From: Bacteroidota bacterium
GTDB lineage: Bacteria; Bacteroidota; Bacteroidia; NS11-12g; UBA955
Assembly: GCA_024103355.1 (NCBI GenBank)
Contig: JAGFIU010000043.1
Span: 2,102-66,101, forward strand
Length of the DNA stretch: 64,000 nt
Reading direction: 5' to 3'
The notes below the pieces were generated by a model, which was not told the origin of the DNA, made no database searches, and worked only from the letters and a program-made list of their open reading frames with translations. This document shows, one piece after another, positions 2,163 to 22,211 of this stretch. The stretch's first letter is position 1, and every line of letters begins with the position of its first letter. The position numbers and the translations under genes were made by a program.

Positions 2163-3185
2163 TTAATCTACTTTCCAAGTAAACTTCCCTGCAATGACTT
2201 TGTCAATCTCACTCTCATCGGCATCCCATCCTTTAGATTCAAATAATTCATCATAAGTAGGCCTTTGTTTTGAATAGAAAACACCAAAAGGTCGTGGGAA
2301 TCCTTGCATATATGTAAATTGAGCAAGCAAAGTTGCTTTAACAAAATCTTGAGGGTCGTGCAACCATTCGTTGGTTTCATTGACTTCACTCAATGAAACA
2401 ATTTCAGGGCTGTGCCCTTTGAGCACAATAGCCTTATCCTTTTCTTTACCGAAAATAAGTTGCTTTCCCTGCTCCAAAATAATGATATTATCATCTTTGG
2501 CTTCTTTGTCAGTAAAGCTTTCAAAAACACCATCATTGAAAATATTACAGTTTTGATAAATTTCTACAAAAGAAGTTCCATTAAACTTAGATGCTTCAAG
2601 GATTGTATCGTGTAAATGAGCAGAGAATCGGTCTATAGTTCGGGCAACAAAAGAGGCACCCGCACCCAAAGTCAATGCCGGGGGGTTGAACGGATTGTCA
2701 ATAACTCCCAAGGGCGAAGACTTGGTTAATAATCCTTTTTCGGATGTCGGGGAGTGTTGTCCTTTTGTCAGTCCGTATATCTCGTTATTAAACAGCAAAA
2801 CATTGACATTGGGATTTCTTCTGCACAAATGAATTAAATGATTACCTCCGATAGACATACTATCACCATCACCGGTAATAATCCATACATCCAGCTCCGG
2901 TCGGGTTATTTTCAAACCGGTTGCAATAGCAAATGCACGTCCATGAATAGAGTGCATCCCATAAGTATCTACATAATACGGGAATCTTGAAGAACATCCT
3001 ATTCCTGAGATGAAAACAATGTCCTCTTTTCTTTTTCCTGTTTGCGGCAAAACTTTTTTTACTGCGTTCAAAACCGCATAATCACCGCAACCGGGGCACC
3101 AACGTACATCTTGGTCAGATTCAAAATCTTTTGATGTATATACTTTCGGTTGTGTTGTTTGTGTTAGAACTGAATCAACTTCCAT
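2163..3185 (-). CDS. korB: 2-oxoacid:ferredoxin oxidoreductase, beta (TPP-binding) subunit
   Basis: 340 aa with the N-terminal CPGCGDY Fe-S/TPP-region motif and a GDGD..SIGGNHL TPP-binding fold. It overlaps the upstream alpha-subunit stop by 11 nt. Confidence 0.85.
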   Translation of the reverse strand: MEVDSVLTQTTQPKVYTSKDFESDQDVRWCPGCGDYAVLNAVKKVLPQTGKRKEDIVFISGIGCSSRFPYYVDTYGMHSIHGRAFAIATGLKITRPELDVWIITGDGDSMSIGGNHLIHLCRRNPNVNVLLFNNEIYGLTKGQHSPTSEKGLLTKSSPLGVIDNPFNPPALTLGAGASFVARTIDRFSAHLHDTILEASKFNGTSFVEIYQNCNIFNDGVFESFTDKEAKDDNIIILEQGKQLIFGKEKDKAIVLKGHSPEIVSLSEVNETNEWLHDPQDFVKATLLAQFTYMQGFPRPFGVFYSKQRPTYDELFESKGWDADESEIDKVIAGKFTWKVD

Positions 3186-5040
3186 GATTAATTTCTGTTA
3201 TTTTTTCTAAAATTTCTCTTGCCAAGAAAGGTTTCCCTTTTACTTTATTCAATTGAATAATATTCGCATTAAAATTACTCTTGAGTATAAATGCCAACTG
3301 ACCGGAATTAAGTTCGGGTACAAGGATATTTTCAAAAGAATTAAGAACCATCTCCAGGTTTCTTGGAAAAGGGTTCAGGTATCTCAAATGTGCCTGACTT
3401 ACTTGAATTCCTGCTTTGTGAGCATCAGTAATAGCTGTGGTTATTGCACCTAAAGTAGAGCCCCAACCCAAGACAAGTAATTTACCCTTCTCATCTCCAT
3501 TCACTATTTTAAGCTCAGGAATAAAATCAACAATCTTTTCTACCTTTTTCCTCCTTAGGTCAACCATTAATTGATGATTATCAGGGTCGTAAGAAACATT
3601 TCCTGTAATATTTTCTTTCTCTAAGCCCCCTATTCTGTGTTGCATTCCGCTCATTCCGGGTACCGCCCATTGTCTGACAAAATTTTCATCTCTTTCATAA
3701 GGCTTGTAACCACTGACAGATTTAGCCAAATTAGGGTTAATTTTAGGGAGTTCTTCCATTCTCGGAAATTTCCAAGGCTCAGCACCATTGGCAATATAAC
3801 CGTCACTCAACAACATCACCGGAGTAACATGTTCCAAAGAGAGTTTGGCTGCTTCAAAAGCCATTTCAAAGCATTCCCTTGGACTTCCGGGGGCTATAAC
3901 AATCATAGGTGCTTCTCCATTTCTGCCAAACATCGCTTGAAACAAATCAGCCTGTTCGGTCTTTGTAGGCAAGCCTGTGGATGGGCCTCCTCTTTGTACA
4001 TTACAAATAACCAAGGGTATTTCTAAGGATATAGCCAATCCCATTGCTTCTGTTTTGAGTGCGATTCCCGGTCCTGAACTCACTGTAACCCCAAGATTTC
4101 CGCCATAAGATGCACCAATGGCTGCACAGATAGCAGCAATCTCGTCTTCTGCCATAAATGAATCAACTCCCAACTTTTTGTATTTTGCAAGTTCATGCAA
4201 AACATCGGAAGCAGGTGTGATAGGATATGCACCCAAAAATAATTTCAACCCGGACTTATGACCGGCAGCAATTAACCCCAAGGCCAAAGCCTCGTTTCCG
4301 GCAATTCCTCTATATGTGCCTGATTGTAAAGGAGCCGGTTTAACAACATATCTCTCATTAAACAGTTCCAATGTTTCACCAAAATTCCATCCTGCCTGAA
4401 TCAAAGCTTTGTTCCATTCTGCCCAATCCCCTTTCTTCCCAAAGCGCATTTCGGTCAAGGCAAAAACTTTATCTAAAGGTCTCTGATACATCCAACAAAC
4501 AAGACCGAGTGCCACCATATTCTTACCACGCTCCATTTCTTTGGTACTGATACCTTTGTCTGCTAAGGTTTCCTTAGCCACCTTTGATAAATCAACATTG
4601 ACTAATTTATAACCTTTTGCCTGAACTTCTCCAAGCGGGTCTGCATCAGACGAGTATCCTGCCAATCGCAGGTTTTTTGAATCAAAACCCAAAGTATTGG
4701 CAATAATAATTCCATTGGTTTTAAGCGTATCCAAATTACTTTTCAGTGCAGCAGCATTCATAGCAATCAACACATCACAACTATCACCGGGTGAGTATAT
4801 TTCTTCACTTCCAAATCTAATTTGGAAACCGGAAACTCCGGCAACGGTTCCTATGGGAGCTCGAATTTCAGCCGGGAAATCAGGGAAAGTAGCAATATCA
4901 TTTCCCGCTAAAGCTGAGGTAGAAGTAAATAAATTACCTGAAACTTGCATCCCATCACCCGAATCTCCCACAAACTTTATAACAACTGAGCTAAGCTCTT
5001 TCTCTTTCAAGGTCATTTCATCTGTTGTTTTGCGTTGCAA
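3175..5040 (-). CDS. korA: 2-oxoacid:ferredoxin oxidoreductase, alpha subunit (two-subunit KorAB type)
   Basis: 621 aa with the typical POR/KOR alpha domain order and motifs (GAYPITPASD..; GPGIALKTEAMGLAISLEIPLVI). It is paired with korB by a start/stop overlap. Confidence 0.85.
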   Translation of the reverse strand: MQRKTTDEMTLKEKELSSVVIKFVGDSGDGMQVSGNLFTSTSALAGNDIATFPDFPAEIRAPIGTVAGVSGFQIRFGSEEIYSPGDSCDVLIAMNAAALKSNLDTLKTNGIIIANTLGFDSKNLRLAGYSSDADPLGEVQAKGYKLVNVDLSKVAKETLADKGISTKEMERGKNMVALGLVCWMYQRPLDKVFALTEMRFGKKGDWAEWNKALIQAGWNFGETLELFNERYVVKPAPLQSGTYRGIAGNEALALGLIAAGHKSGLKLFLGAYPITPASDVLHELAKYKKLGVDSFMAEDEIAAICAAIGASYGGNLGVTVSSGPGIALKTEAMGLAISLEIPLVICNVQRGGPSTGLPTKTEQADLFQAMFGRNGEAPMIVIAPGSPRECFEMAFEAAKLSLEHVTPVMLLSDGYIANGAEPWKFPRMEELPKINPNLAKSVSGYKPYERDENFVRQWAVPGMSGMQHRIGGLEKENITGNVSYDPDNHQLMVDLRRKKVEKIVDFIPELKIVNGDEKGKLLVLGWGSTLGAITTAITDAHKAGIQVSQAHLRYLNPFPRNLEMVLNSFENILVPELNSGQLAFILKSNFNANIIQLNKVKGKPFLAREILEKITEINHGS

Positions 5041-5155: not shown

Positions 5156-6535
5156 TTAAACTCCAACATCATGATGTGCTGACTCTTCGAGATAAGGATG
5201 ATTGATTGGGACAAGTGCTCTTTTTGTTAATGAAAGCAGTGTTAAGTATATAAATGTACCAGTAAATAGTAATAACATTCCAATCTCAAGCATTCCAAAT
5301 TGTGCAAGAGAACCAATAGTGCCGGGCATTACCATTAGATATACATCTATCCAATGCCCAAACAGTAAGATTACTGCAATCCAACCTAGTAATTTAGGAT
5401 TTCTCTTTGCATCCCTAGTCATTAAGACGAAAAATGGTATCACAAAGTTTATAACAATATTTATGTAAAAATAAGGTTTCCACTGATCCATTAATCTTAC
5501 TTGGTAATAGTATACCTCTTCAGGAATATGGGCATACCAAATTAGAAGGAACTGTGATATCCAAATATATCCCCAAAAAATAGAAAAGGCAAAAATAAAT
5601 TTACCTAAATCATGAATGTGTTCATCAGTTACAAGATTTAAATGACCTATTGATTTAAGATAAAGAACAATCAGAGTGATTGCGCATAAGGCAGCAACAA
5701 ATCCTGTTGCAAAATTATAAACGGAAAATATTGTTGAGTACCAATGTGCATCAACACTCATTATTACTAACCAACTAAGTACGCTAATTGAGAAAATAAA
5801 AAAAACAGTAAATGCTGCTGACCATCTGATAGATTTCTTAAACGGTGTGAGCCCTCCCTCTGCATCTTCTCGAACTGATAATGAACTTAGTTTTTTACCG
5901 ATTAAGAACCAAACTAATGGGATAATGATAATGCCACCAATGAAGAAAGAAGAATTTAGAAACCATGATTTTCCGGATAATATTTTATCATATCCCGGTT
6001 CACCAGGTTTTAAAGCCTCATGTTCATAATGAGCCCAATGATATAAATCAGACTTTCCTATAATGAGAATTAAAATTAGAATAATTGAAGCTATTGGCAG
6101 GAATGCTACAACTGATTCAATTACTCTTTTAAAAACTGTTGTCCATCCGGCATTAGCAATATATTGTAAAGCCCAAAAGAACAATGCTAGACAACTGACC
6201 AACACGAAAAAATAGGAATTTGTTAAGATGTTGGCATAAACTCTTGAATACCAAGGCTTATGTGCCCCAGCATCCTCCGGGATAGGTGGAGGTAGTGGAT
6301 GATTTACTTGATGGTCTCCATAATAATTTAACCTAGGTGTATTATTATCAGCTGCAACATGGTGATGTTCCTCGCTCGATGCCCCTTCATTTGAAGGATG
6401 AGTTTTGGGTGCTGTAGCTATTCCGATAATAGTAAGCAATAGTCCCAGCACAATAAGTATTAAACTGAATTTTGTTGCCTTCTTATTACCTGAGAAGAAC
6501 TCTTGTTTTAATTCTATTTTATGTCCGTGCGCCAT
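5156..6535 (-). CDS. actF: Alternative complex III subunit ActF (NrfD-like polytopic quinol-binding membrane subunit 2)
   Basis: 459-aa, highly hydrophobic protein with roughly ten predicted TM segments. It is the last gene of the actABCDEF order and shows the His-rich N-terminus typical of Bacteroidota ActF. Confidence 0.6.
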   Translation of the reverse strand: MAHGHKIELKQEFFSGNKKATKFSLILIVLGLLLTIIGIATAPKTHPSNEGASSEEHHHVAADNNTPRLNYYGDHQVNHPLPPPIPEDAGAHKPWYSRVYANILTNSYFFVLVSCLALFFWALQYIANAGWTTVFKRVIESVVAFLPIASIILILILIIGKSDLYHWAHYEHEALKPGEPGYDKILSGKSWFLNSSFFIGGIIIIPLVWFLIGKKLSSLSVREDAEGGLTPFKKSIRWSAAFTVFFIFSISVLSWLVIMSVDAHWYSTIFSVYNFATGFVAALCAITLIVLYLKSIGHLNLVTDEHIHDLGKFIFAFSIFWGYIWISQFLLIWYAHIPEEVYYYQVRLMDQWKPYFYINIVINFVIPFFVLMTRDAKRNPKLLGWIAVILLFGHWIDVYLMVMPGTIGSLAQFGMLEIGMLLLFTGTFIYLTLLSLTKRALVPINHPYLEESAHHDVGV

Positions 6536-6552: not shown

Positions 6553-7215
6553 TTAATTATTAGTCTGAATTGTTGTTTGTTGATCTTGTTGCTCATTGTT
6601 CACAGTAGCGTTCTTATGATATCCAATACCACTCAGCTCTTGGATATGAGCAATAACCTGCCATCTCTCCTCTGGTGTTAAAACTGAAGCGTGGCTTCCC
6701 ATATTATTTTTACCATAAGTAATTACATGATACATCTTTCCAACAGGGAGGTTCTTGATATAATCATCTTGATATCCTTTCCATGGGGGTTTGATTGCAG
6801 CTACTCTCTTAAAAACACTACCATCATTATGACCTTCTACTCCATGACAAGGTGCACAATAAATGTTATAAAGGCGTTCACCTCTAACTGAATCAAAAGT
6901 AAAATCCTCTGGGTAATGAATTTGTATGGCAGAAGCTTCATAACCCTCTCCATTATTATCCAAAAGATATGCATAATCCAATTTACCAACAGCAATTGTC
7001 CCTTTTACAGGTTCACGCAAATTTGATCCAAATCTGTTTAATGTATTAGAATCCTTCTCCTTAAAAGGTTCATAGCCTTTATCATAATACATATCAGGTG
7101 CATATTCAACTCCCGGATTGTTTCCTCTGCTTTTTGCACAAGAACTCAAAAGGAATGAAACCCCAATCAATGAAAATATTATATAAAAATGTTTGTTCAT
7201 GTTTTTTCTAATCAT
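6553..7215 (-). CDS. actE: ACIII subunit ActE, mono-haem c-type cytochrome (probable lipoprotein)
   Basis: 220 aa with a signal peptide carrying a lipobox-like LSSC and a single CAPCHG haem-binding motif. Its operon position matches ActE. Confidence 0.65.
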   Translation of the reverse strand: MIRKNMNKHFYIIFSLIGVSFLLSSCAKSRGNNPGVEYAPDMYYDKGYEPFKEKDSNTLNRFGSNLREPVKGTIAVGKLDYAYLLDNNGEGYEASAIQIHYPEDFTFDSVRGERLYNIYCAPCHGVEGHNDGSVFKRVAAIKPPWKGYQDDYIKNLPVGKMYHVITYGKNNMGSHASVLTPEERWQVIAHIQELSGIGYHKNATVNNEQQDQQTTIQTNN

Positions 7216-7220
7216 TGTTA

Positions 7221-7805
7221 TTATTTAATCACATTATCTTCAAACTCATTATTATCTAGATTAACTCTTTGCCTTATTTCAACAGCACCCTTATCAGACA
7301 AGAGTTTAACCAATTCATCTGTATTAATCCCAGCTTCATCTAACGACATAGCAAGAACGATTCTATCGCTAGTTTGTCTAGGGTCGATTATCTCATTAGC
7401 TATTTTCCCATGAATCATTCCACTTCTTGCAAAAAACAATATGGCAATACCAAATGCGGTGCATAAGATTGAGAGTTCAAACATAACGGGTATCCATGAT
7501 GGAATGCCGGCATAAGGTTTACCACCAATAATCATTGGCCAATCAAAATACATAATTCCTGCCTGAAGGATAATTGCTAGAGACAAACCGGTCATAGCAC
7601 ATACAAAAGCTCCGATGGGTAATCTTGAACGTTTTAATCCCATAGCTTTTTCCATTCCATGAATCGGATATGGTGAATAGCAGTCTATAATATTCACACC
7701 TCTATTAAATACAGTTTGTGTAGCTTCTAATGCTGAATCACCATCTTCAAATATTCCAAATAGAACCTTTTTGTTATTTCTTAAACTTAGTTTCTTGTCA
7801 TTCAT
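7221..7805 (-). CDS. actD: ACIII subunit ActD (small membrane subunit)
   Basis: 194 aa with a central pair of TM helices, located between actC and actE as in known act operons. Confidence 0.55.
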   Translation of the reverse strand: MNDKKLSLRNNKKVLFGIFEDGDSALEATQTVFNRGVNIIDCYSPYPIHGMEKAMGLKRSRLPIGAFVCAMTGLSLAIILQAGIMYFDWPMIIGGKPYAGIPSWIPVMFELSILCTAFGIAILFFARSGMIHGKIANEIIDPRQTSDRIVLAMSLDEAGINTDELVKLLSDKGAVEIRQRVNLDNNEFEDNVIK

Positions 7806-7829: not shown

Positions 7830-9185
7830 TTATTCGCTGTCTTTCAAAATTGTTTTAATCTCAGCCATATTAATAACCGGAAGAAATTTGGCAAATAAGA
7901 AGAAAAACGTAAAGAACATTCCAAAAGTTCCCAAGTAAATTCCTATTTCAACCCATGTAGGGGAGTATAACGCCCAACCGGATGGTAGATATTCTCTATG
8001 TAAAGAAGTAACAATAATTACGAAACGTTCAAACCACATACCCACATTCACAACAATAGAAAGGAAGAATATGAACCATGGAGTAGTTCTTGCCCATTTC
8101 ATCCAAAAGAATTGAGGAGCAACAAGATTACATGTCATCATGCTCCAATATGCCCACCAATAAGGACCGGTAGCTCTGTTAAGAAAGGCATATTGTTCAT
8201 ACTCTACACCGGAGTATGCTGCCACAAAAAATTCCGTAATATAAGCCAAACCAACCAATGTACCGGTAAGCATAAGTACCTTTGCCATTGCTTCTAGGTG
8301 TCCGATGGTGATATAATCTTCATAATTTAATACCTTGCGCGCTATTATTAATAATGTACAAACCATTCCAAAGCCTGAGAAAATAGCTCCGGCAACGAAG
8401 TATGGAGGGAAAATGGTTGTATGCCAACCCGGAACCACGGAAGTTGCAAAGTCAAAAGACACAATAGTATGCACAGACAATACAAGAGGGGTTGAAATAC
8501 CCGCAAGAATAAGTGATACTACTTCATATCTATTCCATGTTCTGGTAGAACCTGTCCAGCCCATTGAGAAGAAGTTATACCAAAACTTACGTCCTTTTGT
8601 TGTAGCTCTGTCTCTGATAGTCGCAATATCCGGAATTAAACCTAAATACCAGAAAACAAGGGAAACAGAGAAATAAGTACTAACCGCAAAAACGTCCCAT
8701 AAAAGAGGTGAATTAAAGTTAACCCACAAAGAACCGAAAGCGTTTGGCAAAGGGAACACCCAATATGCACCGACCCAAACCCTACCCATGTGGAAGAGAG
8801 GGAATAATGCAGCACAAAGCACTGCAAAGATTGTCATAGCCTCAGCAGAACGGTTGATAGACATTCTCCACTTTTGTCTGAATAAGAGCAAAATTGCAGA
8901 AATCAATGTTCCTGCGTGTCCAATACCAATCCACCAAACGAAGTTGGTAATATCCCAACCCCACTGAACTGATTTATTTAATCCCCATGTACCAATACCC
9001 ACTAAGGTAGTGAGCGCAAGCGTAAATGCAAGCAATCCAAAGAAGATTACTGCAAGAGTAAATCCTATTTTCCAAGTAGTAGAAGGCTTGTTCTCAATTG
9101 GGCGACATATCTCATTACTCACATCCGCGAGCGACTTGTCCTTGGTAACTAATCGAGGGCGTATTGTTGTTATATTATGACTCAT
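7830..9185 (-). CDS. actC: ACIII subunit ActC (NrfD/PsrC-like quinol-interacting membrane subunit)
   Basis: 451-aa polytopic membrane protein that directly follows actB. Confidence 0.7.
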   Translation of the reverse strand: MSHNITTIRPRLVTKDKSLADVSNEICRPIENKPSTTWKIGFTLAVIFFGLLAFTLALTTLVGIGTWGLNKSVQWGWDITNFVWWIGIGHAGTLISAILLLFRQKWRMSINRSAEAMTIFAVLCAALFPLFHMGRVWVGAYWVFPLPNAFGSLWVNFNSPLLWDVFAVSTYFSVSLVFWYLGLIPDIATIRDRATTKGRKFWYNFFSMGWTGSTRTWNRYEVVSLILAGISTPLVLSVHTIVSFDFATSVVPGWHTTIFPPYFVAGAIFSGFGMVCTLLIIARKVLNYEDYITIGHLEAMAKVLMLTGTLVGLAYITEFFVAAYSGVEYEQYAFLNRATGPYWWAYWSMMTCNLVAPQFFWMKWARTTPWFIFFLSIVVNVGMWFERFVIIVTSLHREYLPSGWALYSPTWVEIGIYLGTFGMFFTFFFLFAKFLPVINMAEIKTILKDSE

Positions 9186-9212: not shown

Positions 9213-12200
9213 TTAAATGTTTCTGATTTTAGTTAGGTATTTTACACCTTGTTGAAGGTTTAATTCTTCAAGCAAGTGATAAGAACGTTCGTTTTTATAT
9301 AGTTTAGATACTTCACTAGATGTATCGTTTAAATCCCCAAATACTATAGCGTTTGCCGGACATGATCTTTGGCAAGCAGTTTCAATTTCTCCATCTATCA
9401 TTTCTCTTCTTTCGCGTTTTGCTTTAAGCTTACCATCCTGGATTCTCTGTACACACATTGAACATTTTTCCATAACCCCTCTGGTTCTAACTGTAACATC
9501 AGGATTAATGACCATCTTACCTAAATCATTATTGAAGAAGAAATCAAACTTATCATTATCATTATATCTGAACCAGTTAAATCGTCTCACTTTGAAAGGA
9601 CAGTTATTGGCACAATACTTTGTCCCAATACAACGGTTGTATGTCATTTGGTTCAAACCTTCTGAACTATGAGTAGTTGCCAACACAGGACAAACCGTTT
9701 CGCATGGGGCATTATCGCAATGTTGGCACATAATCGGCTGGTGCATCACCTGTACATTCTCATAATAGAGATATTCTCCATCTTTTTTCTTTGCTTCAGC
9801 TCTGTCCAATGCTTCGATACCTTTTTCTTTGGTAACAAAATCCTTCTGATAATCTCTTTTTAGGAGTAAGTCATTAGAATAGTCAACATGTTCCACATTT
9901 TTGAATGCAAAATATCTGTCAATTCTGATCCAATGCATCTCTCGTCTTCTTCTCACTTCATCGCGTCCTACAACAGGAACGTTGTTTTCAATGCTACAGG
10001 CGACAACACAAGCACCACAACCGGTACAAGCATTTAGGTCAATAGCCATTGCCCAATAGTGACCGGGATTATCATCTCTTTTATATTCATGTCTTGACCA
10101 AAGTTCATATAGATGAGGTCTTGGCATATCATTTCCGGCATATGGGTTCTTATTAAATTCTGTTTGAGTAGCTTCTCTTAATAAATCACGACCTTCGATT
10201 GTATTATGAGTTTGAGTTTGAGCCAATACATAATTACCGGCAACTTTTTCAATTTGAACACCTGAAGCAACCCATTGTCTTGTACCGTTAACAAACGGAG
10301 CAAACGGATATGCATTCTTTCCGATAGTTTCATATGCACCTTTTTCCGCAGATTTACCTTTTCGTCCATAACCCAATGCTATTGAAATAGTATTGTTTGC
10401 TTGACCCGGTTGAATAAGTACAGGAAATTGATCTATCGTGATTCCATTGAGACTCACTTTTACTAAATCTCCTTCAGTGATTCCTTTTTTCTCAGCTAAT
10501 GCTTTTGGCAAAGCAACATAGTTATCCCATGTTACTTTAGAAACAGGATCAGGCAATTCTTGTACCCATGGATTACCACAGAATTTTCCATCTCTTATTC
10601 CCACTTTTTGATATAAAATCAAGTCTATAGCACTATTAACTTCTGGTACCATTTTGGAAATTATAGGACCATAAGTACTGAATTCAGCAGTAAAGCTAAT
10701 AGGAGTATTTTCTATCATAGGCAGGTTATATACCCCGTCATGAAGCACTTTATTAAAGGCAGCTTCATTAGTAACACCTGCAACATTCGTTATCCAAAAA
10801 TTCTTTAGATAGGTATAGTATATTGAAGTATCAAATTTTTGTGCCATTATTTCCTTACCTGCAAACGGGTCTTTAGCAGGTTTTTCTCCAAGTCCTATCC
10901 ATGTGAGTAAAGACACCTCTGCTTGTCGTGTATTAAACACAGGCGAAATGGTCGGTTGAAGAATTTGCAATTTACCTTTCTTAGGTTCTGCATCTCCCCA
11001 AGATTCCAAGTAGTGGTTATCCGGGCAAATATAATCAACATTTTCAGCTGTTTCATCAATGAATCCTGAGAGAGAAATTTTAGTTTTGATTTTGGCTAAA
11101 GCATTCTTTACACTATCTGCTTTATGGTAGTTGTAAATAGGGTTTGCATCCCAAAAAATTACAGCATCATAGGCCCCATTTGTAGCATCAGAAATAAATT
11201 TATCGAAATCGGCATCCAAACCTTTGTACTGATTTGAATAGTTATTTAGGTCAATAGTGTTACCATAGTTACCTAACAAAACATTGAGACCGTTAACCAT
11301 TTGTTGTACATAGGGGTCATTTGAACCGGATATAATGATTGATTTACCTTCATTGTCAAGCAAATCTTTTGCAACATTATCAAGCACATTTCCTGCAAGA
11401 TTAAGAACTCTTGTAACCGGAATTTTAGCTGTTCCTTTTTTCTCTGCAATTCTATTATAAAGAGTAGCGATATAGAGCGCTTCACTTGATTGTTTCATAG
11501 GGAATCTGATATCAGCATTGGTTCCCGTAAGAGAAAGGTTGGATTCAAACTGATAATGTCTTGACATATTTCCGGGAACTCTTCCTCTAGTGTATGAGCC
11601 GGTATATTCAACCGGAGAAATCCACGTACCTAAAAAGTCTGCTGCAAAACTTACAATGATTTTTGATTTTGAAAAATCATATGATGGAATAACGGCTTTC
11701 CCAAATCCATCTAAATTTGCTTTTAATATCCCACTATAAGAAATCGCATCATAAGTAATATGGTCAGTGCTATATTTTTCAGCAAATTTTTGAATTACGG
11801 AAAGCGCTGAAGGACTATGTATTGTACCGGAAACAATAGCAACTTTTTTGCTCGCAGCAAGTGCTTTCTCTATTTCACCATCTATAGTAGCCCAGTCAGT
11901 TGCTTTCCCACCTTTCATTGGGTTTTCTAATCTAGCAGTATCATAAAGTGAGAGAATACTTGCTTGACCTAAAGCAGATAGACCTCGTCCTGAAAAGGAA
12001 TTTGGGTTACCGTCAACTTTAATGGGCCTTCCTTCACGAACCTTAATTTGAACACCATATCCCTCTGAACTTGCACCTAAAGTAGAGTTATAATAGTTTG
12101 CAACTCCGGGAGTGACATCCTCGGGTTTAACCAAGTACGGGATTGCTTTTCTGATTGGAGCTTTGTTACATGCTGCCAATGCTACAGCGGTGATACTAAA

Positions 12201-12371
12201 ACCAAAGAATTTTAAGAAGTCTCTCCTATTTGAAGATAATTCAAAGTTATTCTCTTGTAGAACTTCATCTAAAGGTAGGTCTTCGCTAAACTCTTTTTTC
12301 AAATCTGCTTGAAATGAAGGTGTGTTAAGTAACTCATCCTCTCCTTTCCAATATTGTGTTTTATTAGACAT
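9213..12371 (-). CDS. actB: ACIII subunit ActB: Tat-exported molybdopterin-oxidoreductase-like domain fused to a 4Fe-4S ferredoxin domain
   Basis: 1052 aa. The twin-arginine motif SNRRDFLKF is followed by a hydrophobic stretch. The C-terminal half holds multiple Cys clusters (CTGCGACVVACSIENNVP, CQHCDNAPCETVCP, CIGTKYCANNCP). Confidence 0.75.
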   Translation of the reverse strand: MSNKTQYWKGEDELLNTPSFQADLKKEFSEDLPLDEVLQENNFELSSNRRDFLKFFGFSITAVALAACNKAPIRKAIPYLVKPEDVTPGVANYYNSTLGASSEGYGVQIKVREGRPIKVDGNPNSFSGRGLSALGQASILSLYDTARLENPMKGGKATDWATIDGEIEKALAASKKVAIVSGTIHSPSALSVIQKFAEKYSTDHITYDAISYSGILKANLDGFGKAVIPSYDFSKSKIIVSFAADFLGTWISPVEYTGSYTRGRVPGNMSRHYQFESNLSLTGTNADIRFPMKQSSEALYIATLYNRIAEKKGTAKIPVTRVLNLAGNVLDNVAKDLLDNEGKSIIISGSNDPYVQQMVNGLNVLLGNYGNTIDLNNYSNQYKGLDADFDKFISDATNGAYDAVIFWDANPIYNYHKADSVKNALAKIKTKISLSGFIDETAENVDYICPDNHYLESWGDAEPKKGKLQILQPTISPVFNTRQAEVSLLTWIGLGEKPAKDPFAGKEIMAQKFDTSIYYTYLKNFWITNVAGVTNEAAFNKVLHDGVYNLPMIENTPISFTAEFSTYGPIISKMVPEVNSAIDLILYQKVGIRDGKFCGNPWVQELPDPVSKVTWDNYVALPKALAEKKGITEGDLVKVSLNGITIDQFPVLIQPGQANNTISIALGYGRKGKSAEKGAYETIGKNAYPFAPFVNGTRQWVASGVQIEKVAGNYVLAQTQTHNTIEGRDLLREATQTEFNKNPYAGNDMPRPHLYELWSRHEYKRDDNPGHYWAMAIDLNACTGCGACVVACSIENNVPVVGRDEVRRRREMHWIRIDRYFAFKNVEHVDYSNDLLLKRDYQKDFVTKEKGIEALDRAEAKKKDGEYLYYENVQVMHQPIMCQHCDNAPCETVCPVLATTHSSEGLNQMTYNRCIGTKYCANNCPFKVRRFNWFRYNDNDKFDFFFNNDLGKMVINPDVTVRTRGVMEKCSMCVQRIQDGKLKAKRERREMIDGEIETACQRSCPANAIVFGDLNDTSSEVSKLYKNERSYHLLEELNLQQGVKYLTKIRNI

Positions 12372-12405: not shown

Positions 12406-14127
12406 TTAATAATGGCACTTTGAGCAATCCAAACCACCAATGTTTGCAATTGTGATATTAACTTTTCCGTCCTTAAGATACTTACTTTTATCTCCATTCT
12501 TCTCAATATCCTTTTTGGCGAGCGCATGAAGTTTTTCGTAATAATCATTGTTCTCAACATCTACTCCTGAGTTTCTGTGACAATCTATGCACCAACCCAT
12601 TTGAAGTGTGGCGTATTGCTGAATAACTTCCATCTCTTGAACAGGCCCGTGACACTTTTGACATTCCAATCCGGCAACATTGGCATGCTGAGAGTGATTG
12701 AAATATGATAAATCCGGTAAATTATGTACCCTTACCCATTTGATATTCTTTGGATTATCTCCAAAGCGCTCTCCCGGTTTTGCATCAGGGTTGTAATCTA
12801 AGGCTGTATAAATCTTCTGAATTTCCGGAGAAACTTCACCGTTATATTTGTCTCTTAGTTGTACTCCAACGTGGCAATTCATACAAGTATTTAATGAAGG
12901 AATGCTCGCAGCTTTACTATAATCTACAGTACTATGGCAATAACGACAATCAATATTTAATTCACCGGCATGAAGCGCATGGGAATATGCAATCGGTTGT
13001 GTTGGGGCATATCCTCTCTGAACACCAACTTCTGTAACTCCAAAATAAAAACCATAAATACCTAAAACCAAACCCACTGATACAATAATTAATAGAGTAT
13101 TTATTGTTCTTCGAGAAGTACTATATTTGTTCTTAAGATGTTCTGTAAGTGATTTTTCTTTTTGTTCTGAGCCTTCAAATTCTTTTATTACATTGGATAA
13201 TTTCCTTCTGATTCTATAAAGTATTATAGCTACAATGAGTAAAACTACTGCAATTATAGCCACCACATAGAGTGTTGTTTTATTGTAAAAACTACCTTCA
13301 TTAGCGGACTTACCGTCATCTGTTTTTGTCTTACCTGAATCTTCTGCAACTTTAGGAGCACTCTCATAGTCAATCCAAGCTAGGATTGCATCTATATCCT
13401 CAGTAGTCAAATTCTCATATACATTCATCGCTGCACTATTATACTCTTTGTATAGTGCAATGGCATCAGGATCTCCTGATTCTCTTAATTGAACATTATT
13501 TTTTATCCAACTATGCAACCAATCTTTGCTTCTTCGTTTGGTTACATCCTTTAAGGCAGGCCCGATTACAACTCTATCAATTGCATGACATGCCATACAA
13601 GCTTGTTGTTCAAATAACTCTTTCCCCTTTTGGACTAAAGCATCAGGTGCGCCACCAGAAGCAGGCGCTGCTTTGGGCGAACTTTCTTCTTCTATCCACA
13701 ACAAAATCGACTTGATGTCATTATCAGATAGGTGCTCATATGTATTCATTGCAGCACCGTTATATTCTTTGTAAATTGCTATAGCATCCTTATCACCTGA
13801 TTCTCGTAACTGAACATTATTTCTAATCCATTTAATTAGCCACTCTTCACTTTTTTGCTTTGTTATATCTTTTAAAGCAGGACCAATTACAACCCTGTCA
13901 ATAGCATGACAGGCAAAACATGCTTGTTGTTCAAATAATTCTTTCCCTTTTGCTGCTGATGGGGCATCTTGAGCCTTAGCTACATAGGAACCATAAGTTA
14001 GTAATAGAGCAGTAAGGCTAATTGCCCTTACTGAATTTCTGATTATGTCTGATAGTCTTATCATTAGTACTATTAATATTATATACACTAATTTCCAAAG
14101 CACTTTTGCTTCAAAAATTCGGGGCAA
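12406..14127 (-). CDS. actA: ActA-like multihaem cytochrome c: two N-terminal mono-haem class-I-like domains plus a C-terminal pentahaem ActA domain (7 CXXCH motifs)
   Basis: 573 aa with a signal peptide. The motifs are CFACH and CMACH in two near-identical 88-aa repeats, two TM helices, then CRYCH, CMNCH, CIDCH, CQKCH and CSKCH. Confidence 0.7.
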   Translation of the reverse strand: MPRIFEAKVLWKLVYIILIVLMIRLSDIIRNSVRAISLTALLLTYGSYVAKAQDAPSAAKGKELFEQQACFACHAIDRVVIGPALKDITKQKSEEWLIKWIRNNVQLRESGDKDAIAIYKEYNGAAMNTYEHLSDNDIKSILLWIEEESSPKAAPASGGAPDALVQKGKELFEQQACMACHAIDRVVIGPALKDVTKRRSKDWLHSWIKNNVQLRESGDPDAIALYKEYNSAAMNVYENLTTEDIDAILAWIDYESAPKVAEDSGKTKTDDGKSANEGSFYNKTTLYVVAIIAVVLLIVAIILYRIRRKLSNVIKEFEGSEQKEKSLTEHLKNKYSTSRRTINTLLIIVSVGLVLGIYGFYFGVTEVGVQRGYAPTQPIAYSHALHAGELNIDCRYCHSTVDYSKAASIPSLNTCMNCHVGVQLRDKYNGEVSPEIQKIYTALDYNPDAKPGERFGDNPKNIKWVRVHNLPDLSYFNHSQHANVAGLECQKCHGPVQEMEVIQQYATLQMGWCIDCHRNSGVDVENNDYYEKLHALAKKDIEKNGDKSKYLKDGKVNITIANIGGLDCSKCHY

Positions 14128-14336: not shown

Positions 14337-15359
14337 TTACTTTGGCTCTCTAGTATTCAAGAGAATTAGCCTATATTCTAAGAAGGTGCCTGCTCCATTA
14401 ATCTTAACAGAGGTTTCCATTCTAAATTCTGAAATATTCCTTCTTAGCTTGTCGAATGTGTGATATTCATCTCTTGAAACAATTATACGAGGTGGAGGAA
14501 TGTTGACCTCTCCTCCTGAAGTCCCTGTTAAATAATTCAAATAATCCTCTGCAAGGCTTTGAAAGTCTGATTCATCAGTTACTGAATTAAAGGAATGTTT
14601 AATTTCATCTCGATTCTCGGAAGTAATATAAAAGATTTCGTCACCTGACTTGCTTATACTCTCTCTATCTTTGAAAGGATTAGGTATCTCACATATAATA
14701 GGGTCCTTTATCCATAGATTAACTCTACGTCCAATTATCGAGAACATATTTAAATAGTAATTTGCAACCACAAGTTCAACTTCTTCAGGTTGTTCATACA
14801 GTTTTCTATATTCATCGTAAGTATTTAAACCTATTTTTTTATTCTCAAATTCTATTCTCAAATTTTGCAATAACGTATCTCGCCATTGTTCCCAATTCTT
14901 TAGACCAATGTAGTTAAATGAATCATCAAACTCCAACAGAACCGGAGCATTTCTTAAGGATTCTCGGGTTTCTAAATAAGCCGTTTTGCTCGGCTTATCA
15001 TATTTCATATAATGTGTTATACCTACTATCCATGTGTTTGAATCGGTATAGGATATGTTCATCACTGAATAAAGCGAATCAATCGTCATATAAATAGGCA
15101 TATCCCTCTCATTCGTATTCAAATTGGTTGTTTTATGAAAATACACAAGCTCCATCCCGTTTTTCCAATTTGGTTTAAAAGTAAAATGCATCGTGGTGTC
15201 AAGCTGAGCAAATGTCTTTGAAGCAGAAAGCACTATGCACATCACTATTAAGGAAGCAATAAAACCGCTTTTGAATGAGACATTGTTGTTCATGAATATT
15301 TCAAAATAAATTGCTGCAAAGATGCAAAAAACTATGCCAAAGTTGCTCCTACTAAACAA
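14337..15359 (-). CDS. Hypothetical secreted protein (the real start is probably the internal Met at about 15293)
   Basis: 340-aa ORF. Only the segment from the MNNNVSF Met onward has a signal-peptide-like hydrophobic region. No recognisable family. Confidence 0.4.
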   Translation of the reverse strand: MFSRSNFGIVFCIFAAIYFEIFMNNNVSFKSGFIASLIVMCIVLSASKTFAQLDTTMHFTFKPNWKNGMELVYFHKTTNLNTNERDMPIYMTIDSLYSVMNISYTDSNTWIVGITHYMKYDKPSKTAYLETRESLRNAPVLLEFDDSFNYIGLKNWEQWRDTLLQNLRIEFENKKIGLNTYDEYRKLYEQPEEVELVVANYYLNMFSIIGRRVNLWIKDPIICEIPNPFKDRESISKSGDEIFYITSENRDEIKHSFNSVTDESDFQSLAEDYLNYLTGTSGGEVNIPPPRIIVSRDEYHTFDKLRRNISEFRMETSVKINGAGTFLEYRLILLNTREPK

Positions 15360-17457: not shown

Positions 17458-18510
17458 CTACCTGAATCCTTCGTTGATATCTTGCAAAATATCATTTCCG
17501 GGGCACAAGGTTGCTTCGTTCAAGCGGTTGAGCGGGGTGTCGGAAGTATTTAAAATATTATGCAACTCTTTGGGATTGCGGTTGATATAAAGCAAGCCGG
17601 TTAGCACCTCTTGTTTTTCTTCTGCTCTTTTGAGTGCTGAGATAGCGGATAGTCGGTCTTCCGGATTCCATTCATTATCCAATTTATGAAATTGCAGTGC
17701 ACTGCCGTCATGCAGTTCAATAGTGGTAACTTCTCCTTCTCCATAGGACTTGGTAATGGGATCCATTACAGGCACATAATCTGCTCTACCAGTGCAGGCT
17801 GCATGTTCTCTCGCAAACTGATATGATTTTGTAGAGCCGGGATTATTATTGAATGTAACACAAGGTGAAACCACATTCAAAAAAGCAAATCCGGGATGGT
17901 TGATAGCAGCCTTGAGTAGAGGAATCAATTGGTCTTTGTCTCCCGAAAAGCTCTGAGCTACAAAAGAAGCTCCCAATTCTATTGCAAGGCTGGCCAAATC
18001 AATAGGCGGATAGGGGTTAACGCTTCCGGCTTTACTGATAGAACCTACATCGGCAGTGGCGGAATCTTGTCCTTTTGTAAGACCATAAACCCCATTATTC
18101 ATGCAGATATAAACCATGTTCAGGTTTTTGCGTATCACATGAACAAATTGTCCCATACCGATTGATGCAGAATCTCCATCGCCCGAAACACCGATATACA
18201 ATAACTCTTTGTTGGCAAGGTTTGCTCCGGTAGCCACAGCCGGCATGCGTCCGTGAACTGAGTTGAATCCGTGTGAATTGCTCAAAAAATAAGCAGGCGT
18301 TTTGGATGAACACCCAATTCCGGATAGTTTGGCAACTTTGTGTGGCTCTATATCCAATTCAAAACAAGCCTGAACAATGGCTGTGCTGATGGAATCGTGG
18401 CCGCAACCGGCACAAAGGGTTGAAATAACTCCTTCGTATTCGGCTGAGGTGTAGCCCAATTTATTTTTGGGTAATTCAGGATGTCGGAAACTTGGTTTAT
18501 AAAATGTCAT
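17458..18510 (-). CDS. 2-oxoacid:ferredoxin oxidoreductase beta subunit, second paralog
   Basis: 350 aa with CAGCGHD and GDGDSASIGMGQ TPP-binding motifs. It is collinear with the alpha-subunit paralog 12 bp upstream. Confidence 0.8.
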   Translation of the reverse strand: MTFYKPSFRHPELPKNKLGYTSAEYEGVISTLCAGCGHDSISTAIVQACFELDIEPHKVAKLSGIGCSSKTPAYFLSNSHGFNSVHGRMPAVATGANLANKELLYIGVSGDGDSASIGMGQFVHVIRKNLNMVYICMNNGVYGLTKGQDSATADVGSISKAGSVNPYPPIDLASLAIELGASFVAQSFSGDKDQLIPLLKAAINHPGFAFLNVVSPCVTFNNNPGSTKSYQFAREHAACTGRADYVPVMDPITKSYGEGEVTTIELHDGSALQFHKLDNEWNPEDRLSAISALKRAEEKQEVLTGLLYINRNPKELHNILNTSDTPLNRLNEATLCPGNDILQDINEGFR

Positions 18511-18522
18511 TGTTATTAATTG

Positions 18523-20343
18523 TTATTTAATTTGTGAAATAATATCATCAGCGGTAATTGGCATACCGTTATAATTTAAAACAGGAATCAATTTATTTGG
18601 ATTTATACCCATCTCAATCATCATCAGGCTGCGCAGTTGTGCATCGCGGTTTTGTTCTACTACATAAATTTTATCATGGGAATTAACAAACTCTTCTACT
18701 GACTTACTAAACGGAAAAGATTTGATTCGCATAGCATCCATTACCATTCCCTGTTTTTGGAGAATATGCATAGCCTCTTCTGCGGCATAAATTGAAGTGC
18801 CATAAAAGACAATCGCTGTTGCGCTTTTCTTTTCATCCTGATAGAAATGTGGCGCGGGCACCATCTCCTTTGCTGTATTAAATTTAACTAACAGCCTATC
18901 CATATTCTTCTTATAGGAATCTGAATCCTCGGTATATTTTGCATATTCGTTTTTGGATGTTCCTCTGGTAAAATATGAGCCTTTTGTAGGATGAGTTCCC
19001 GGATACGTTCTATAGGGTATCCCGTCTCCATCCACATCAAGGTAACGTCCAAAATTTTCAATTTTTTCCAAATCTTGAGCAGAGAGGACTTTGCCACGTT
19101 TAAATGTTCTGTTATCGTCCCATTTCAAAGGTTCTGACATGTGGTCATTCATACCCAAATCAAGGTCAGAGAGCAGAAGGATTGGTGTTTGTAATTGTTC
19201 TGCAAGGTCAAATGATTCTGCGGTAAAATCAAAGCACTCTTTCGGAGTAGATGGGAATAAAACAATATGCTTGGTATCTCCATGAGAAGCATAAGCTGCT
19301 TCCATCACATCACTTTGTTGTGTACGTGTTGGCATTCCTGTGGAAGGCCCTGTGCGTTGTATGTCAATCAACACTACCGGTATTTCGGCAAAATAAGCTA
19401 AACCCAAAAATTCGTTCATCAAAGAAACGCCCGGACCGCTGGTTGCAGTGAACGAACGTGCACCATTCCATCCTGCTCCGATAGCCATCCCGATTGCGGA
19501 TAATTCATCTTCTGCCTGAACAAAAGCATAATTCTTTTTTCCGGTTATGGGGTCAATGCGAAATTTGGAAGCGTATTCATTAAATGCTTCGGGTGTAGAA
19601 GTAGAAGGGGTTATTGGATACCATGCACAAACCGTTGCTCCTCCATAGACAGCTCCTATTCCGCAAGCGGTATTGCCATCAATCATAATAGAATCTTTAA
19701 CCAAATCTCTTCTTTCAACCCGCATATTCAATGGAAATTCAAAATGTTCTTTAACATAATCCACACCCATTTGTAATGCTTTTATATTGGGAGATATCAG
19801 TTTTTCTTTCCCTTTAAACTGAGATTGAAGGACATTTTCCAAAGCAGTAAACTCAATGTTCAGCAAAGCAGAAAGCGCTCCCACATAAATCACATTTTTA
19901 AAAAGCTGTCTTTGGCGTGGGTCTGTAAAAGCAGCGTTGGACATATCCATTAGCGGTATTCCAAAATAGGTAATATCTTCACGGATGAACTCATCATGCA
20001 AATGCTTAGAACTGTCATAGAGAAAATATCCTCCCGGCTTAACACAAGCAACGTCTTGATGCATACTTTGAGGGTTCATACAAACCATAAAGTCTACTCC
20101 TTCTCGCCTGCCCAACCAACCGTTTTCATTAACTCTGACTTCATACCAAGTGGGAAGTCCTTGAATATTGGAAGGAAAAATATTTTTGGGTGTTACCGGA
20201 ACCCCCATTCTAAAAATTGCTTTTGTAAAAAGAAAATTTGCACTTGCAGACCCTGTTCCATTCACATTTGCAAAGCGGATAACAAAATCGTTAACTTTTG
20301 TTGTGCCGGTCTTATCTGCTGCTAAAGCTTGAGATTCGAGCAT
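18523..20343 (-). CDS. 2-oxoacid:ferredoxin oxidoreductase alpha subunit, second paralog
   Basis: 606 aa with the same domain order as the 3175..5040 product (GPGVSLMNEFLGLAYFAEIPVVLI). Confidence 0.8.
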   Translation of the reverse strand: MLESQALAADKTGTTKVNDFVIRFANVNGTGSASANFLFTKAIFRMGVPVTPKNIFPSNIQGLPTWYEVRVNENGWLGRREGVDFMVCMNPQSMHQDVACVKPGGYFLYDSSKHLHDEFIREDITYFGIPLMDMSNAAFTDPRQRQLFKNVIYVGALSALLNIEFTALENVLQSQFKGKEKLISPNIKALQMGVDYVKEHFEFPLNMRVERRDLVKDSIMIDGNTACGIGAVYGGATVCAWYPITPSTSTPEAFNEYASKFRIDPITGKKNYAFVQAEDELSAIGMAIGAGWNGARSFTATSGPGVSLMNEFLGLAYFAEIPVVLIDIQRTGPSTGMPTRTQQSDVMEAAYASHGDTKHIVLFPSTPKECFDFTAESFDLAEQLQTPILLLSDLDLGMNDHMSEPLKWDDNRTFKRGKVLSAQDLEKIENFGRYLDVDGDGIPYRTYPGTHPTKGSYFTRGTSKNEYAKYTEDSDSYKKNMDRLLVKFNTAKEMVPAPHFYQDEKKSATAIVFYGTSIYAAEEAMHILQKQGMVMDAMRIKSFPFSKSVEEFVNSHDKIYVVEQNRDAQLRSLMMIEMGINPNKLIPVLNYNGMPITADDIISQIK

Positions 20344-20393
20344 ATATATTGTCTAAAATAATTGTTTCTAATAAGTTTAAGATAGTCTTTGAT

Positions 20394-22211
20394 TTAATAA
20401 ATTACTGTAGGCGGCAGTCCGTCTTCGCCCATATTATGTGCTTTTGTCACATTATAATAAAACTGCTTCATGTCCCAAGCTGAAGTAGGGCAACGCTCCG
20501 CACATAATCCACAATGCAGACAGACGTTTTCATCTTTGACCATGATTCTACCTGTTTTTACTTTGTCTGACACATAAAGACTTTGGTCAGTATTTAATGC
20601 GGGCATTGTCAACTTAGCGCGCATTTCTCCTTCGTCCTCTTCATTGAAGGTAAATGTAATACAATCCGTAGGGCAGACATCTACACAAGCATCACACTCA
20701 ATACATAAGTTTTCTTCAAAAACTGTTTGCATATCACAGTTGAGACAACGTTCTGCTTCTTTGAATGCTTCTAATTCATCAAAACCCAACTCCACTTCTT
20801 TTTTAATATTATTTAGCGTCTCAGACTTGTCTGCTTGTGGTACGATATATCTTTTGTCATTCACAACCTGACTATCATAACTCCATTCATGAATACCCAT
20901 CTTCATACTGTGCAGATTCACAAATGGAGACGGTCTGTCTTGTTTAATATTTAGACCTTCACACAACAGATGTATGGAAATAGCAACTTGATGTCCTTGG
21001 GCAACAGAGGTAATAATATTTTTAGGACCTAAAGAAGCATCACCGCCAAAAAAGACTTTTGGATGTGTTGAGGCAAAAGTTTTGGCATCCAAAATCGGCA
21101 TTCCCCATTCATTAAATTCTATTCCCAAATCACGTTCAATCCAGGGAAAGCTATTTTCCTGACCTATCGCCACTATGGCATCATCTGCTTCAAAAAAAAC
21201 ATCGGGCTCTCCGGTTGGTATTAATTTTCTTTTTCCTGTATCATCATAAACAGCCTTTACTTTTTCAAACATCATTCCCTGCAATTTTCCATCTTTTACT
21301 ACAAAGGATTTGGGAACATGATTATCAAAAATAGGGATATCTTCATGTAGTGCATCTTCAATTTCCCACTCTGAAGCTTTCATTTCAGATTTCGGACTTC
21401 TAACCACAACCTTTACATCCGTTCCGCCCAATCTTCTTGCAGTTCGGCAGCAATCCATTGCGGTATTTCCTCCACCCAAAACCAAAACTCTTTTTCCTAT
21501 TGATTTTGTATGTTCAAAAGCCACACTTGCGAGCCAATTGATACCCACATGAATATTTTCTTTGGCATCCCATCTCCCTGGCAAGTCGGGCAAATCGCGT
21601 CCTCTGGGAGCACCCGTACCTACATAAATAGCGTCATAATCTTTTTCAAGCATCTCTTTCATTGAAGACACATAATGATTAAAATGGGTATGGATACCTA
21701 AATCAAGAATATATCCAACCTCCTCGTCCAACACTTCATCCGGCAGTCTGAAAGAAGGAATTTGGCTGCGCATAAATCCTCCGCCTTTTGATTGGTCATC
21801 AAAGAGATGAATTTCATAACCAATTGGTGCGAGGTCTCGAGCAACGGTCAAAGAAGACGGACCTCCTCCAATCAACGCAATTTTTTTCCCGTTAGGTGGA
21901 AACGGGCCCTGAGGCATCATTCTTTTTACATCCTCCTTGTGGTCAGCTGCCACTCTTTTGAGTCTGCAAATTGCAACAGGCTTTTCTTCAACACGTCCAC
22001 GTCTGCATGCAGGTTCACATGGCCTATCACAAGTTCTGCCCAAAATCCCGGGAAACACATTGGAATCCCAGTTTACCATATAGGATTCACTGTAACGCCC
22101 TTGGGCAATCAGTCTTAAATACTGAGGAATCGGAGTGTGCGATGGACAAGCATATTGGCAATCCACCACTTTATGAAAGTATTCTGGATTCTTGGTATCA
22201 GTAGGTTTCAT
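20394..22211 (-). CDS. GltD-family NAD(P)H-dependent FAD/Fe-S oxidoreductase with a C-terminal 2x[4Fe-4S] ferredoxin domain
   Basis: 605 aa. The N-terminus has GltD-type Cys clusters (CPSHTP..CDRPCEPAC) and a Rossmann motif (IALIGGGPSSLTVARDLA). The C-terminus has CIECDACVDVCP and CLHCGLCAERCP. It lies 50 bp upstream of the second korA paralog on the same strand. Confidence 0.65.
   Translation of the reverse strand: MKPTDTKNPEYFHKVVDCQYACPSHTPIPQYLRLIAQGRYSESYMVNWDSNVFPGILGRTCDRPCEPACRRGRVEEKPVAICRLKRVAADHKEDVKRMMPQGPFPPNGKKIALIGGGPSSLTVARDLAPIGYEIHLFDDQSKGGGFMRSQIPSFRLPDEVLDEEVGYILDLGIHTHFNHYVSSMKEMLEKDYDAIYVGTGAPRGRDLPDLPGRWDAKENIHVGINWLASVAFEHTKSIGKRVLVLGGGNTAMDCCRTARRLGGTDVKVVVRSPKSEMKASEWEIEDALHEDIPIFDNHVPKSFVVKDGKLQGMMFEKVKAVYDDTGKRKLIPTGEPDVFFEADDAIVAIGQENSFPWIERDLGIEFNEWGMPILDAKTFASTHPKVFFGGDASLGPKNIITSVAQGHQVAISIHLLCEGLNIKQDRPSPFVNLHSMKMGIHEWSYDSQVVNDKRYIVPQADKSETLNNIKKEVELGFDELEAFKEAERCLNCDMQTVFEENLCIECDACVDVCPTDCITFTFNEEDEGEMRAKLTMPALNTDQSLYVSDKVKTGRIMVKDENVCLHCGLCAERCPTSAWDMKQFYYNVTKAHNMGEDGLPPTVIY

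Follow-up and report, generated by a model that had tools for sequence, protein, structure and literature searches.

A tandem-duplicated cytochrome c domain in a predicted seven-haem, Flavobacterium-type ActA of alternative complex III from a Bacteroidota bacterium

The actA gene and its two N-terminal cytochrome c domains

The stretch of DNA analysed here, hereafter the window, comprises 64,000 nucleotides (64 kb) of contig JAGFIU010000043.1 (assembly GCA_024103355.1) from a Bacteroidota bacterium and carries an alternative complex III (ACIII) operon. Its first gene, actA, encodes a cytochrome c subunit with seven CXXCH haem-binding motifs, which is probably a Flavobacterium-type ActA whose tethered N-terminal monohaem domain has been duplicated in tandem. 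A preliminary description of the window had already recognised this gene as the actA of an actABCDEF operon, and scanning the five open reading frames (ORFs) that follow it against Pfam and NCBIfam bears this assignment out; actA is the first gene of the cluster, and the same synteny recurs in related loci.

The gene lies on the minus strand (12406-14064) and codes for 552 aa from an ATG at 14064, its assignment as the heptahaem cytochrome c subunit of ACIII resting on its identity with a database protein and on its match to the chain 6BTM_A. The mechanical ORF is longer (12406-14127, minus strand) and opens with a TTG at 14127, which falls within TATATTTG (14120-14127, minus strand), about 60 nt upstream of the ATG. 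This short stretch resembles the Bacteroidetes -7 promoter box (consensus TAnnTTTG). The database protein P0001 (MCO6495483.1), whose record title 'MAG: c-type cytochrome [Bacteroidetes bacterium]' marks it as coming from a metagenome-assembled genome (MAG), is 100% identical to the 552-aa ActA and starts at the ATG at 14064. Since the TTG sits in the -7-like box and the database protein agrees, this ATG is probably the true start. Residues are therefore numbered from it; the numbering of the preliminary description, which began at the TTG, is 21 higher.

From its N-terminus, the protein begins with a predicted signal peptide (aa 1-31; 13972-14064, minus strand, as are all the parts of ActA given below), read from the sequence and coinciding with a helix at aa 2-28 in the AlphaFold2 (AF2) model. 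It ends in ...YVAKA|QD and has no lipobox cysteine, cleavage being expected after ...YVAKA. The first cytochrome c domain, d1 (aa 39-128; 13681-13950), is matched by Pfam PF13442 and PF00034 and has its CFACH motif at aa 49-53 and a distal methionine, Met106. A 17-residue linker rich in proline, alanine and glycine, SPKAAPASGGAPDALVQ (aa 129-145; 13630-13680), with a predicted local distance difference test (pLDDT) score below 50 at aa 133-135, leads to the second domain, d2 (aa 146-235; 13360-13629), matched by PF00034 at aa 144-232, with CMACH at aa 156-160 and the distal Met213. A charged, Gly/Ser-rich second linker of about 22 residues (aa 236-257; 13294-13359), scoring below 50 at aa 242-260, joins d2 to the first transmembrane (TM) helix.

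Hydropathy places the two TM helices at about aa 258-289 (13198-13293) and aa 319-344 (13033-13110), in line with AF2 helices at aa 262-297 and aa 319-346, respectively, and the second of them would bring the chain back to the periplasm. The remainder (aa 345-552; 12409-13032) is the pentahaem ActA module, recognised by the Pfam families Cytochrome_C7 and CIII, with CXXCH motifs at aa 373, 394, 468, 492 and 547. The order originally proposed, i.e. two units, then two TM helices, then a five-haem module, is thus the one given by hydropathy and by the motif count: CFACH in d1, CMACH in d2 and five more in the C-terminal module make seven.

As for the two units themselves, they lie where they had been placed, at aa 61-148 and 168-255 in the TTG numbering, that is, at 13684-13947 and 13363-13626 of the minus strand, each with the single CXXCH that had been claimed. 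Their identity had been put at about 85%, whereas an in-register comparison of the 88-aa units gives 66 identical residues (75%). The diverged 321-bp direct repeat that had been described in the DNA was found by a direct-repeat search as a 298-nt repeat (13333-13630 and 13654-13951; 72% identity) with a spacing of 321 nt, corresponding to a period of 107 aa; Tandem Repeats Finder did not report this 321-nt repeat, because the copies are too diverged. At the DNA level the units share 193 of 264 positions (73%), and the differences at the first, second and third codon positions number 20, 9 and 42, respectively, so that 42 of the 71 fall on the third.

Nei-Gojobori estimates for d1 against d2 gave a non-synonymous divergence (dN) of 0.17, a saturated synonymous divergence (dS) and a dN/dS of about 0.04, while the orthologous copies, compared with those of the sister species, had a dN of 0.04-0.05 and again a saturated dS. 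The saturation and the low ratio indicate an old duplication, with strong purifying selection on both copies. Five sequencing runs independently yielded the identical 552-aa protein, and at least five samples the 87% identical orthologue P0003, once on a 322-kb contig. Orthologues at 87-88% identity retain both copies, and P0001, P0002 and P0003 all have seven CXXCH motifs.

Both units have the N-terminal CXXCH and the distal methionine in the C-terminal half that characterise class I c-type cytochromes, and PF00034 and PF13442 match the pair. In an alignment of 83 ActA proteins, the N-terminal domain has 14 invariant residues (G, C, C, H, G, P, L, W, W, N, N, D, A and M); d1 has all 14, at positions 107 residues upstream of those in d2. 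Moreover, C49/C52/H53/M106 in d1 and C156/C159/H160/M213 in d2 are invariant across 11 heptahaem ActAs from divergent lineages. Haem binding by both domains is predicted from these motifs. Concerning the fold, the AF2 model of ActA has a mean pLDDT of 69, with the linkers below 50; d2 (pLDDT 81-96) is modelled with the all-alpha fold of class I cytochromes c, and its best Foldseek match is the Rhodothermus marinus cytochrome c 3CP5 (33% identity, TMt 0.71, probability 1.00). The isoelectric points (pI) of d1 and d2 are nearly equal (5.12 and 5.04), as are their charges, which gives no hint of different partners.

When the di-domain region alone served as query, the matches were all short cytochromes with one domain, and the parent ActA itself was not among them. 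The sampled proteins also include free-standing small cytochromes c (P0288-P0324; 120-300 aa) sharing about 50% identity with the N-terminal domain of ActA, such as a 160-aa protein of a Chitinophagaceae genome. Some of these may be fragments, and others look like unfused relatives of that domain.

Relation to other ActA proteins and origin of the second domain

Among structurally known ActAs, the closest counterpart is that of Flavobacterium johnsoniae (6BTM_A, 444 aa; E=2.4e-94), with residues 131-552 of the query aligned to residues 42-444 of the chain. The alignment takes in d2, both TM helices and the pentahaem module, so that d2, judged by this alignment, corresponds to the single mobile domain of the F. 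johnsoniae protein. The pentahaem module itself is also matched by 8K9E_A, 6F0K_A and 6LOD_A (E-values of about 1e-26 to 1e-34; 1e-33, 1e-30 and 1e-26, respectively), and the Rhodothermus and Roseiflexus ActAs (6F0K_A, 211 aa; 6LOD_A, 226 aa) align only from residue ~315 onwards. The window ActA therefore has the Flavobacterium-type arrangement, an N-terminal class I monohaem domain on a tether followed by two TM helices, and departs from it in having seven CXXCH motifs and two N-terminal domains rather than exactly six motifs.

The preliminary description had measured the protein against a 'classical' ActA made of an N-terminal anchor and a pentahaem domain. This is the Rhodothermus/Roseiflexus form, the Rhodothermus protein having a single N-terminal TM anchor and no N-terminal cytochrome c domain (PMC5928083), whereas the norm in Bacteroidota is hexahaem: six CXXCH motifs were found in 116 of the 120 best homologues, and seven in three. 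The ActA of F. johnsoniae indeed binds six c-type haems (PMC8552683). The other part of the initial proposal, a built-in exit for electrons that resembles a soluble cytochrome, has already been put forward for the single domain (PMC8552683, citing the 6BTM paper); given this and the hexahaem norm, only the second copy is new here.

Two further samples give a similar picture. The best 80 loci from GTDB species genomes, a score-biased sample rather than a census and one that does not include the window's own species, comprised 74 hexahaem and 5 heptahaem loci. A profile-free search of 1.84 billion representatives at 50% identity yielded, in its best 149, 15 proteins with seven CXXCH motifs, 80 with six and 29 with five. 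Score ranking favours two-domain proteins, so the true frequency of the heptahaem form lies below these fractions. The di-haem extension is thus not universal in Bacteroidota ActA, which would have made it typical of the phylum, nor is it unique to the window lineage: it is a minority form present in several Bacteroidota lineages. The literature searched contained no description of a heptahaem ActA, and this variant of the known hexahaem Flavobacterium-type ActA appears to be undescribed there.

The heptahaem GTDB loci belong to three Flavobacteriaceae MAGs (L017-L019), a Lutibacter sp. (L043) and the cultured Lutibacter aestuarii CCUG 60022 (L020). As for the 15 seven-motif representatives, ten have two related tandem domains (P0121, P0124, P0126, P0127, P0135, P0136, P0139, P0151, P0175 and P0204); P0175 and P0204 are more diverged, and the other eight share the tandem architecture of the window ActA. 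Named carriers include a Vicingus-like Flavobacteriales bacterium (P0121) and a Chlorobiota MAG (P0126). In the remaining five (P0177, P0194, P0210, P0221 and P0225), the second haem domain is unrelated, with no more than 16-23% identity to the first one; by this sequence comparison they form a second class of seven-haem ActA that arose by a different insertion and not by tandem duplication.

In a domain tree built from the 40 ActAs closest to that of the window, all six domains belonging to the window clade formed one group, within which d1 grouped with d1 and d2 with d2; a broader, bootstrapped tree gave 100% support to the d1 group of this clade and 93% to its d2 group. Within the clade, paralogous copies are 73-77% identical and orthologous ones 89-94%, against 63-71% to the single domains of the nearest hexahaem proteins. 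Read most simply, these trees and identities reflect a single duplication in the common ancestor of this small clade of Bacteroidia. Elsewhere, d1 and d2 of the same protein came out as sisters in P0139 (100% bootstrap), P0151 (99%), P0135 (89%), P0121 (75%) and P0136 (65%). Such pairings of d1 with d2 within one protein point to several separate duplications, and the seven-haem ActA appears, from these trees, to have arisen several times independently. Such recurrence suggests a selectable benefit.

These observations bear on the possibility that the extra domain is functionally redundant, i.e. a tolerated duplication that drifts along in a complex working like the hexahaem form. The nearly equal charge and pI of the two copies and their identical invariant residues are what redundancy would predict. 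So is the occurrence of hexahaem and heptahaem forms in otherwise identical operon contexts, with or without oxidase genes, and nothing has obviously been replaced, since ActE is still encoded. Yet strong purifying selection has acted on both copies over a divergence that saturates synonymous sites, paralogue-specific residues are kept among orthologues, and the duplication has been fixed several times independently, while a haem domain that is expensive to mature should, if redundant, degenerate or vanish. Redundancy is accordingly regarded as unlikely.

The ACIII operon and its surroundings

The five genes downstream of actA are all on the minus strand. actB (9213-12371; 1052 aa) encodes the Fe-S and molybdopterin-like subunit, with an N-terminus of the twin-arginine translocation (TAT) type, and was identified from Pfam and NCBIfam matches; actC (7830-9185; 451 aa) encodes the NrfD-like quinol-binding membrane subunit (PF03916), and actD (7221-7805) a protein of 194 aa (PF11821 ActD, E=4.8e-50). 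They are followed by actE (6553-7215; 220 aa), coding for a monohaem cytochrome c with the lipobox LLSSC, as judged from Pfam and its CXXCH motif, and by actF (5156-6535; 459 aa), which has no Pfam match and is assigned from its operon position and the conserved synteny. ActA and ActE are the only CXXCH proteins encoded in the window.

Immediately upstream of actA lies a 340-aa ORF (14337-15359, minus strand) that has a hydrophobic segment at its N-terminus and is matched by neither Pfam nor NCBIfam. The same slot is occupied in the sister species (L001/L002) by a 347-aa gene without a Pfam match, in Flavobacterium sp. RS13.1 (L064) and the Vicingus-like MAG (L093) by a small SPOR-domain protein, and in Lutibacter (L020) by a 123-aa ORF without a Pfam match.

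On the other side, genes for 2-oxoacid:ferredoxin oxidoreductase and hscA come after the window actF, and the neighbours of the operon as a whole include two 2-oxoacid:ferredoxin oxidoreductase sets, HscA and a 2-oxoacid dehydrogenase E1 component. Two alpha/beta pairs of 2-oxoacid:acceptor oxidoreductase flank the operon (2163-5040 and 17458-22211, both on the minus strand), the second adjoining a 605-aa protein with Fer4_20, pyridine-nucleotide disulphide oxidoreductase and 4Fe-4S domains. Further along the window are a glyceraldehyde-3-phosphate dehydrogenase homologue (22594-24033, plus strand; 479 aa), with its NAD-binding domain starting only at residue 129 and preceded by about 128 unassigned residues, a 776-aa DUF285 protein with a type IX secretion system (T9SS) C-terminal sorting domain (31423-33753) and two very large ORFs of 2475 aa (34369-41796, plus strand) and 1433 aa (41811-46112, minus strand).

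That no oxidase genes flank the operon had been pointed out in the preliminary description, and nothing like cox1 or cox2 was found in the 64-kb window. Among the Bacteroidota loci with enough downstream sequence, cox2-cox1 lie directly after actF in 58 of 65; the ACIII operons of the window lineage and its closest relatives (L001/L002, L011-L014, L016 and L018) lack them. The sister species, with seven haems, has no cox neighbours, and neither have the closest hexahaem relatives (P0011, L013, L014 and L016). Conversely, cox2-cox1 follow the heptahaem operons of Lutibacter, the Vicingus-like MAG and P0127, and there cox2 has no cytochrome c domain, which points to oxidases of the aa3 type, like that of F. 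johnsoniae. The lack of oxidase genes next to the operon characterises the wider lineage and is not a correlate of the second domain. A tie between the di-haem arm and the loss of these genes, as initially suggested, does not hold as a general rule.

The same distribution weakens the reading in which the di-haem arm is adapted to another or an additional acceptor (a cbb3 oxidase, for instance, or a reductase of the periplasm) that is not bound in a supercomplex, and replaces a free cytochrome c, the loss of cox2-cox1 being thereby explained. It would fit a clade that lacks the usual cox neighbours, the many 2-oxoacid:ferredoxin oxidoreductases of the window, a hint of life at low oxygen, and the lack of any c-type cytochrome other than ActA and ActE within the 64 kb. 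The heptahaem operons that do have cox2-cox1 and the hexahaem relatives that do not are contrary to it, however, and an aa3 oxidase may simply lie elsewhere in the genome; this reading is considered very doubtful.

Interpretation and comparison with known systems

Even though the window comes from a MAG-like source and P0001 is annotated as MAG-derived, a collapsed or expanded repeat in the assembly, a danger that the preliminary description had raised for the 321-bp unit, is hardly conceivable and is rejected here: copies that are 73% identical in DNA, with saturated synonymous sites, are far too diverged to mislead an assembler, the same protein came from five independent runs and its orthologue from several samples, including the 322-kb contig, and the reading frame, haem motifs and linkers are all intact.

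The reading retained, with a probability of about 70%, is that of a Flavobacterium-type ActA with a tandem-duplicated tethered monohaem domain, i.e. a heptahaem subunit whose arm would have a longer reach or an extra relay. After Sec export and haem attachment, both domains would lie on the periplasmic side, strung like beads on a chain that the TM hairpin anchors, d2 on its linker of about 22 residues and d1 17 residues further out. Menaquinol would be oxidised at ActC, and electrons would pass through ActB and the five-haem wire of ActA (and ActE) to the proximal d2, and thence, or in parallel, to the distal d1, which would dock on the acceptor, presumably a terminal oxidase encoded elsewhere. 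The second haem could provide a longer swinging-arm reach, an extra relay step, or an arrangement in which one arm loads while the other unloads. No new function would be gained, as this role is already ascribed to the single domain of F. johnsoniae.

In F. johnsoniae, the N-terminal monohaem domain has been proposed to shuttle electrons to cytochrome aa3, and this mobile domain is invisible in electron cryo-microscopy, according to PMC8552683, which cites the 6BTM paper for the shuttle; the same article reports that ActE is dispensable for electron transfer to aa3.

Several points weigh against the reading of a duplicated, longer arm. The role of the single domain is, in PMC8552683, a proposal and not a demonstrated mechanism, and the acceptor cannot be named since the window holds no oxidase gene. 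For d1, the AF2 model reaches only moderate confidence (pLDDT 41-88), this domain being covered by no more than three sequences. Finally, the union of d1 and d2 of the window clade received only 47% bootstrap in the broad tree, so that an older duplication with subsequent losses is a possible alternative to the single clade-specific event.

A wider proposal would be that several Bacteroidota and Chlorobiota-like lineages each fixed the duplication independently, since a 'double-jointed arm' with two haems offers ACIII an ability that one domain does not provide, either reach beyond the supercomplex or a branch point to two acceptors, and that in the window lineage, where act and cox are not linked, the arm serves a non-aa3 partner. 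In this full form it is speculative and is thought rather unlikely to be correct.

As a whole, the second N-terminal copy is genuine but amounts to a modest change in an architecture known from Flavobacterium, an incremental variant that leaves the nature and role of ACIII unchanged. The exit route of electrons from ACIII is still unsettled, and a domain that was duplicated and then conserved, apparently in several independent instances, provides comparative evidence for a functionally important part of the exit path, sensitive to dosage or geometry. The occurrence of the heptahaem form in the cultured L. aestuarii offers a natural variant on which the swinging-arm model can be tested.

Tandem class I cytochrome c domains are also found in actinobacterial QcrC (bcc-aa3 supercomplex) and in CcoP (cbb3 oxidases), where two of them replace a diffusible cytochrome c. 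The likeness to the window ActA is conceptual only, an analogy between tandem di-haem modules built into a respiratory complex, as neither the host complex nor the topology is the same. Homology with QcrC was rejected (20.7 bits for NCBIfam bc1_QcrC_actin vs. a cut-off of 200; Foldseek probabilities of at most 0.10 for QcrC chains), as was homology with di-haem cytochromes of the c4 type, no c4 family having been found in the Pfam and NCBIfam scans of ActA.

At the level of the single unit, the monohaem cytochrome c of R. marinus (3CP5/6CUK) ranks with the top matches by sequence (phmmer E=8e-8 to 9e-9) and agrees in structure (Foldseek identity 33-34%, TMt 0.69-0.71) and in its class I His/Met ligation; it differs in being a free-standing protein, whereas here the domain is fused to ActA, twice. 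The ActAs of R. marinus and Roseiflexus castenholzii (6F0K_A, 6LOD_A and 8K9E_A) share the homologous pentahaem module with a membrane anchor directly upstream, and differ in having one N-terminal TM helix and no N-terminal cytochrome c domain. The other heptahaem ActAs (Lutibacter, L017-L019, P0121, P0124, P0126, P0127, P0135, P0136, P0139 and P0151) have the same architecture as the window protein, with invariant CXXCH and methionine, but are only 33-41% identical to it, and several of their operons retain cox2-cox1 neighbours.

The nearest known system remains the ACIII of F. johnsoniae, whose ActA agrees with that of the window in operon position, in the pentahaem module, in the two-helix hairpin and in the tethered N-terminal class I cytochrome c. 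The part proposed for its N-terminal haem, a mobile exit for electrons to the oxidase (PMC8552683), can be transferred directly to the window protein. In Flavobacterium and most Bacteroidota, actF is followed by cox2-cox1, unlike in the window operon, and where the F. johnsoniae subunit has one N-terminal domain and six haems, the window ActA has two domains in tandem and a predicted seven.

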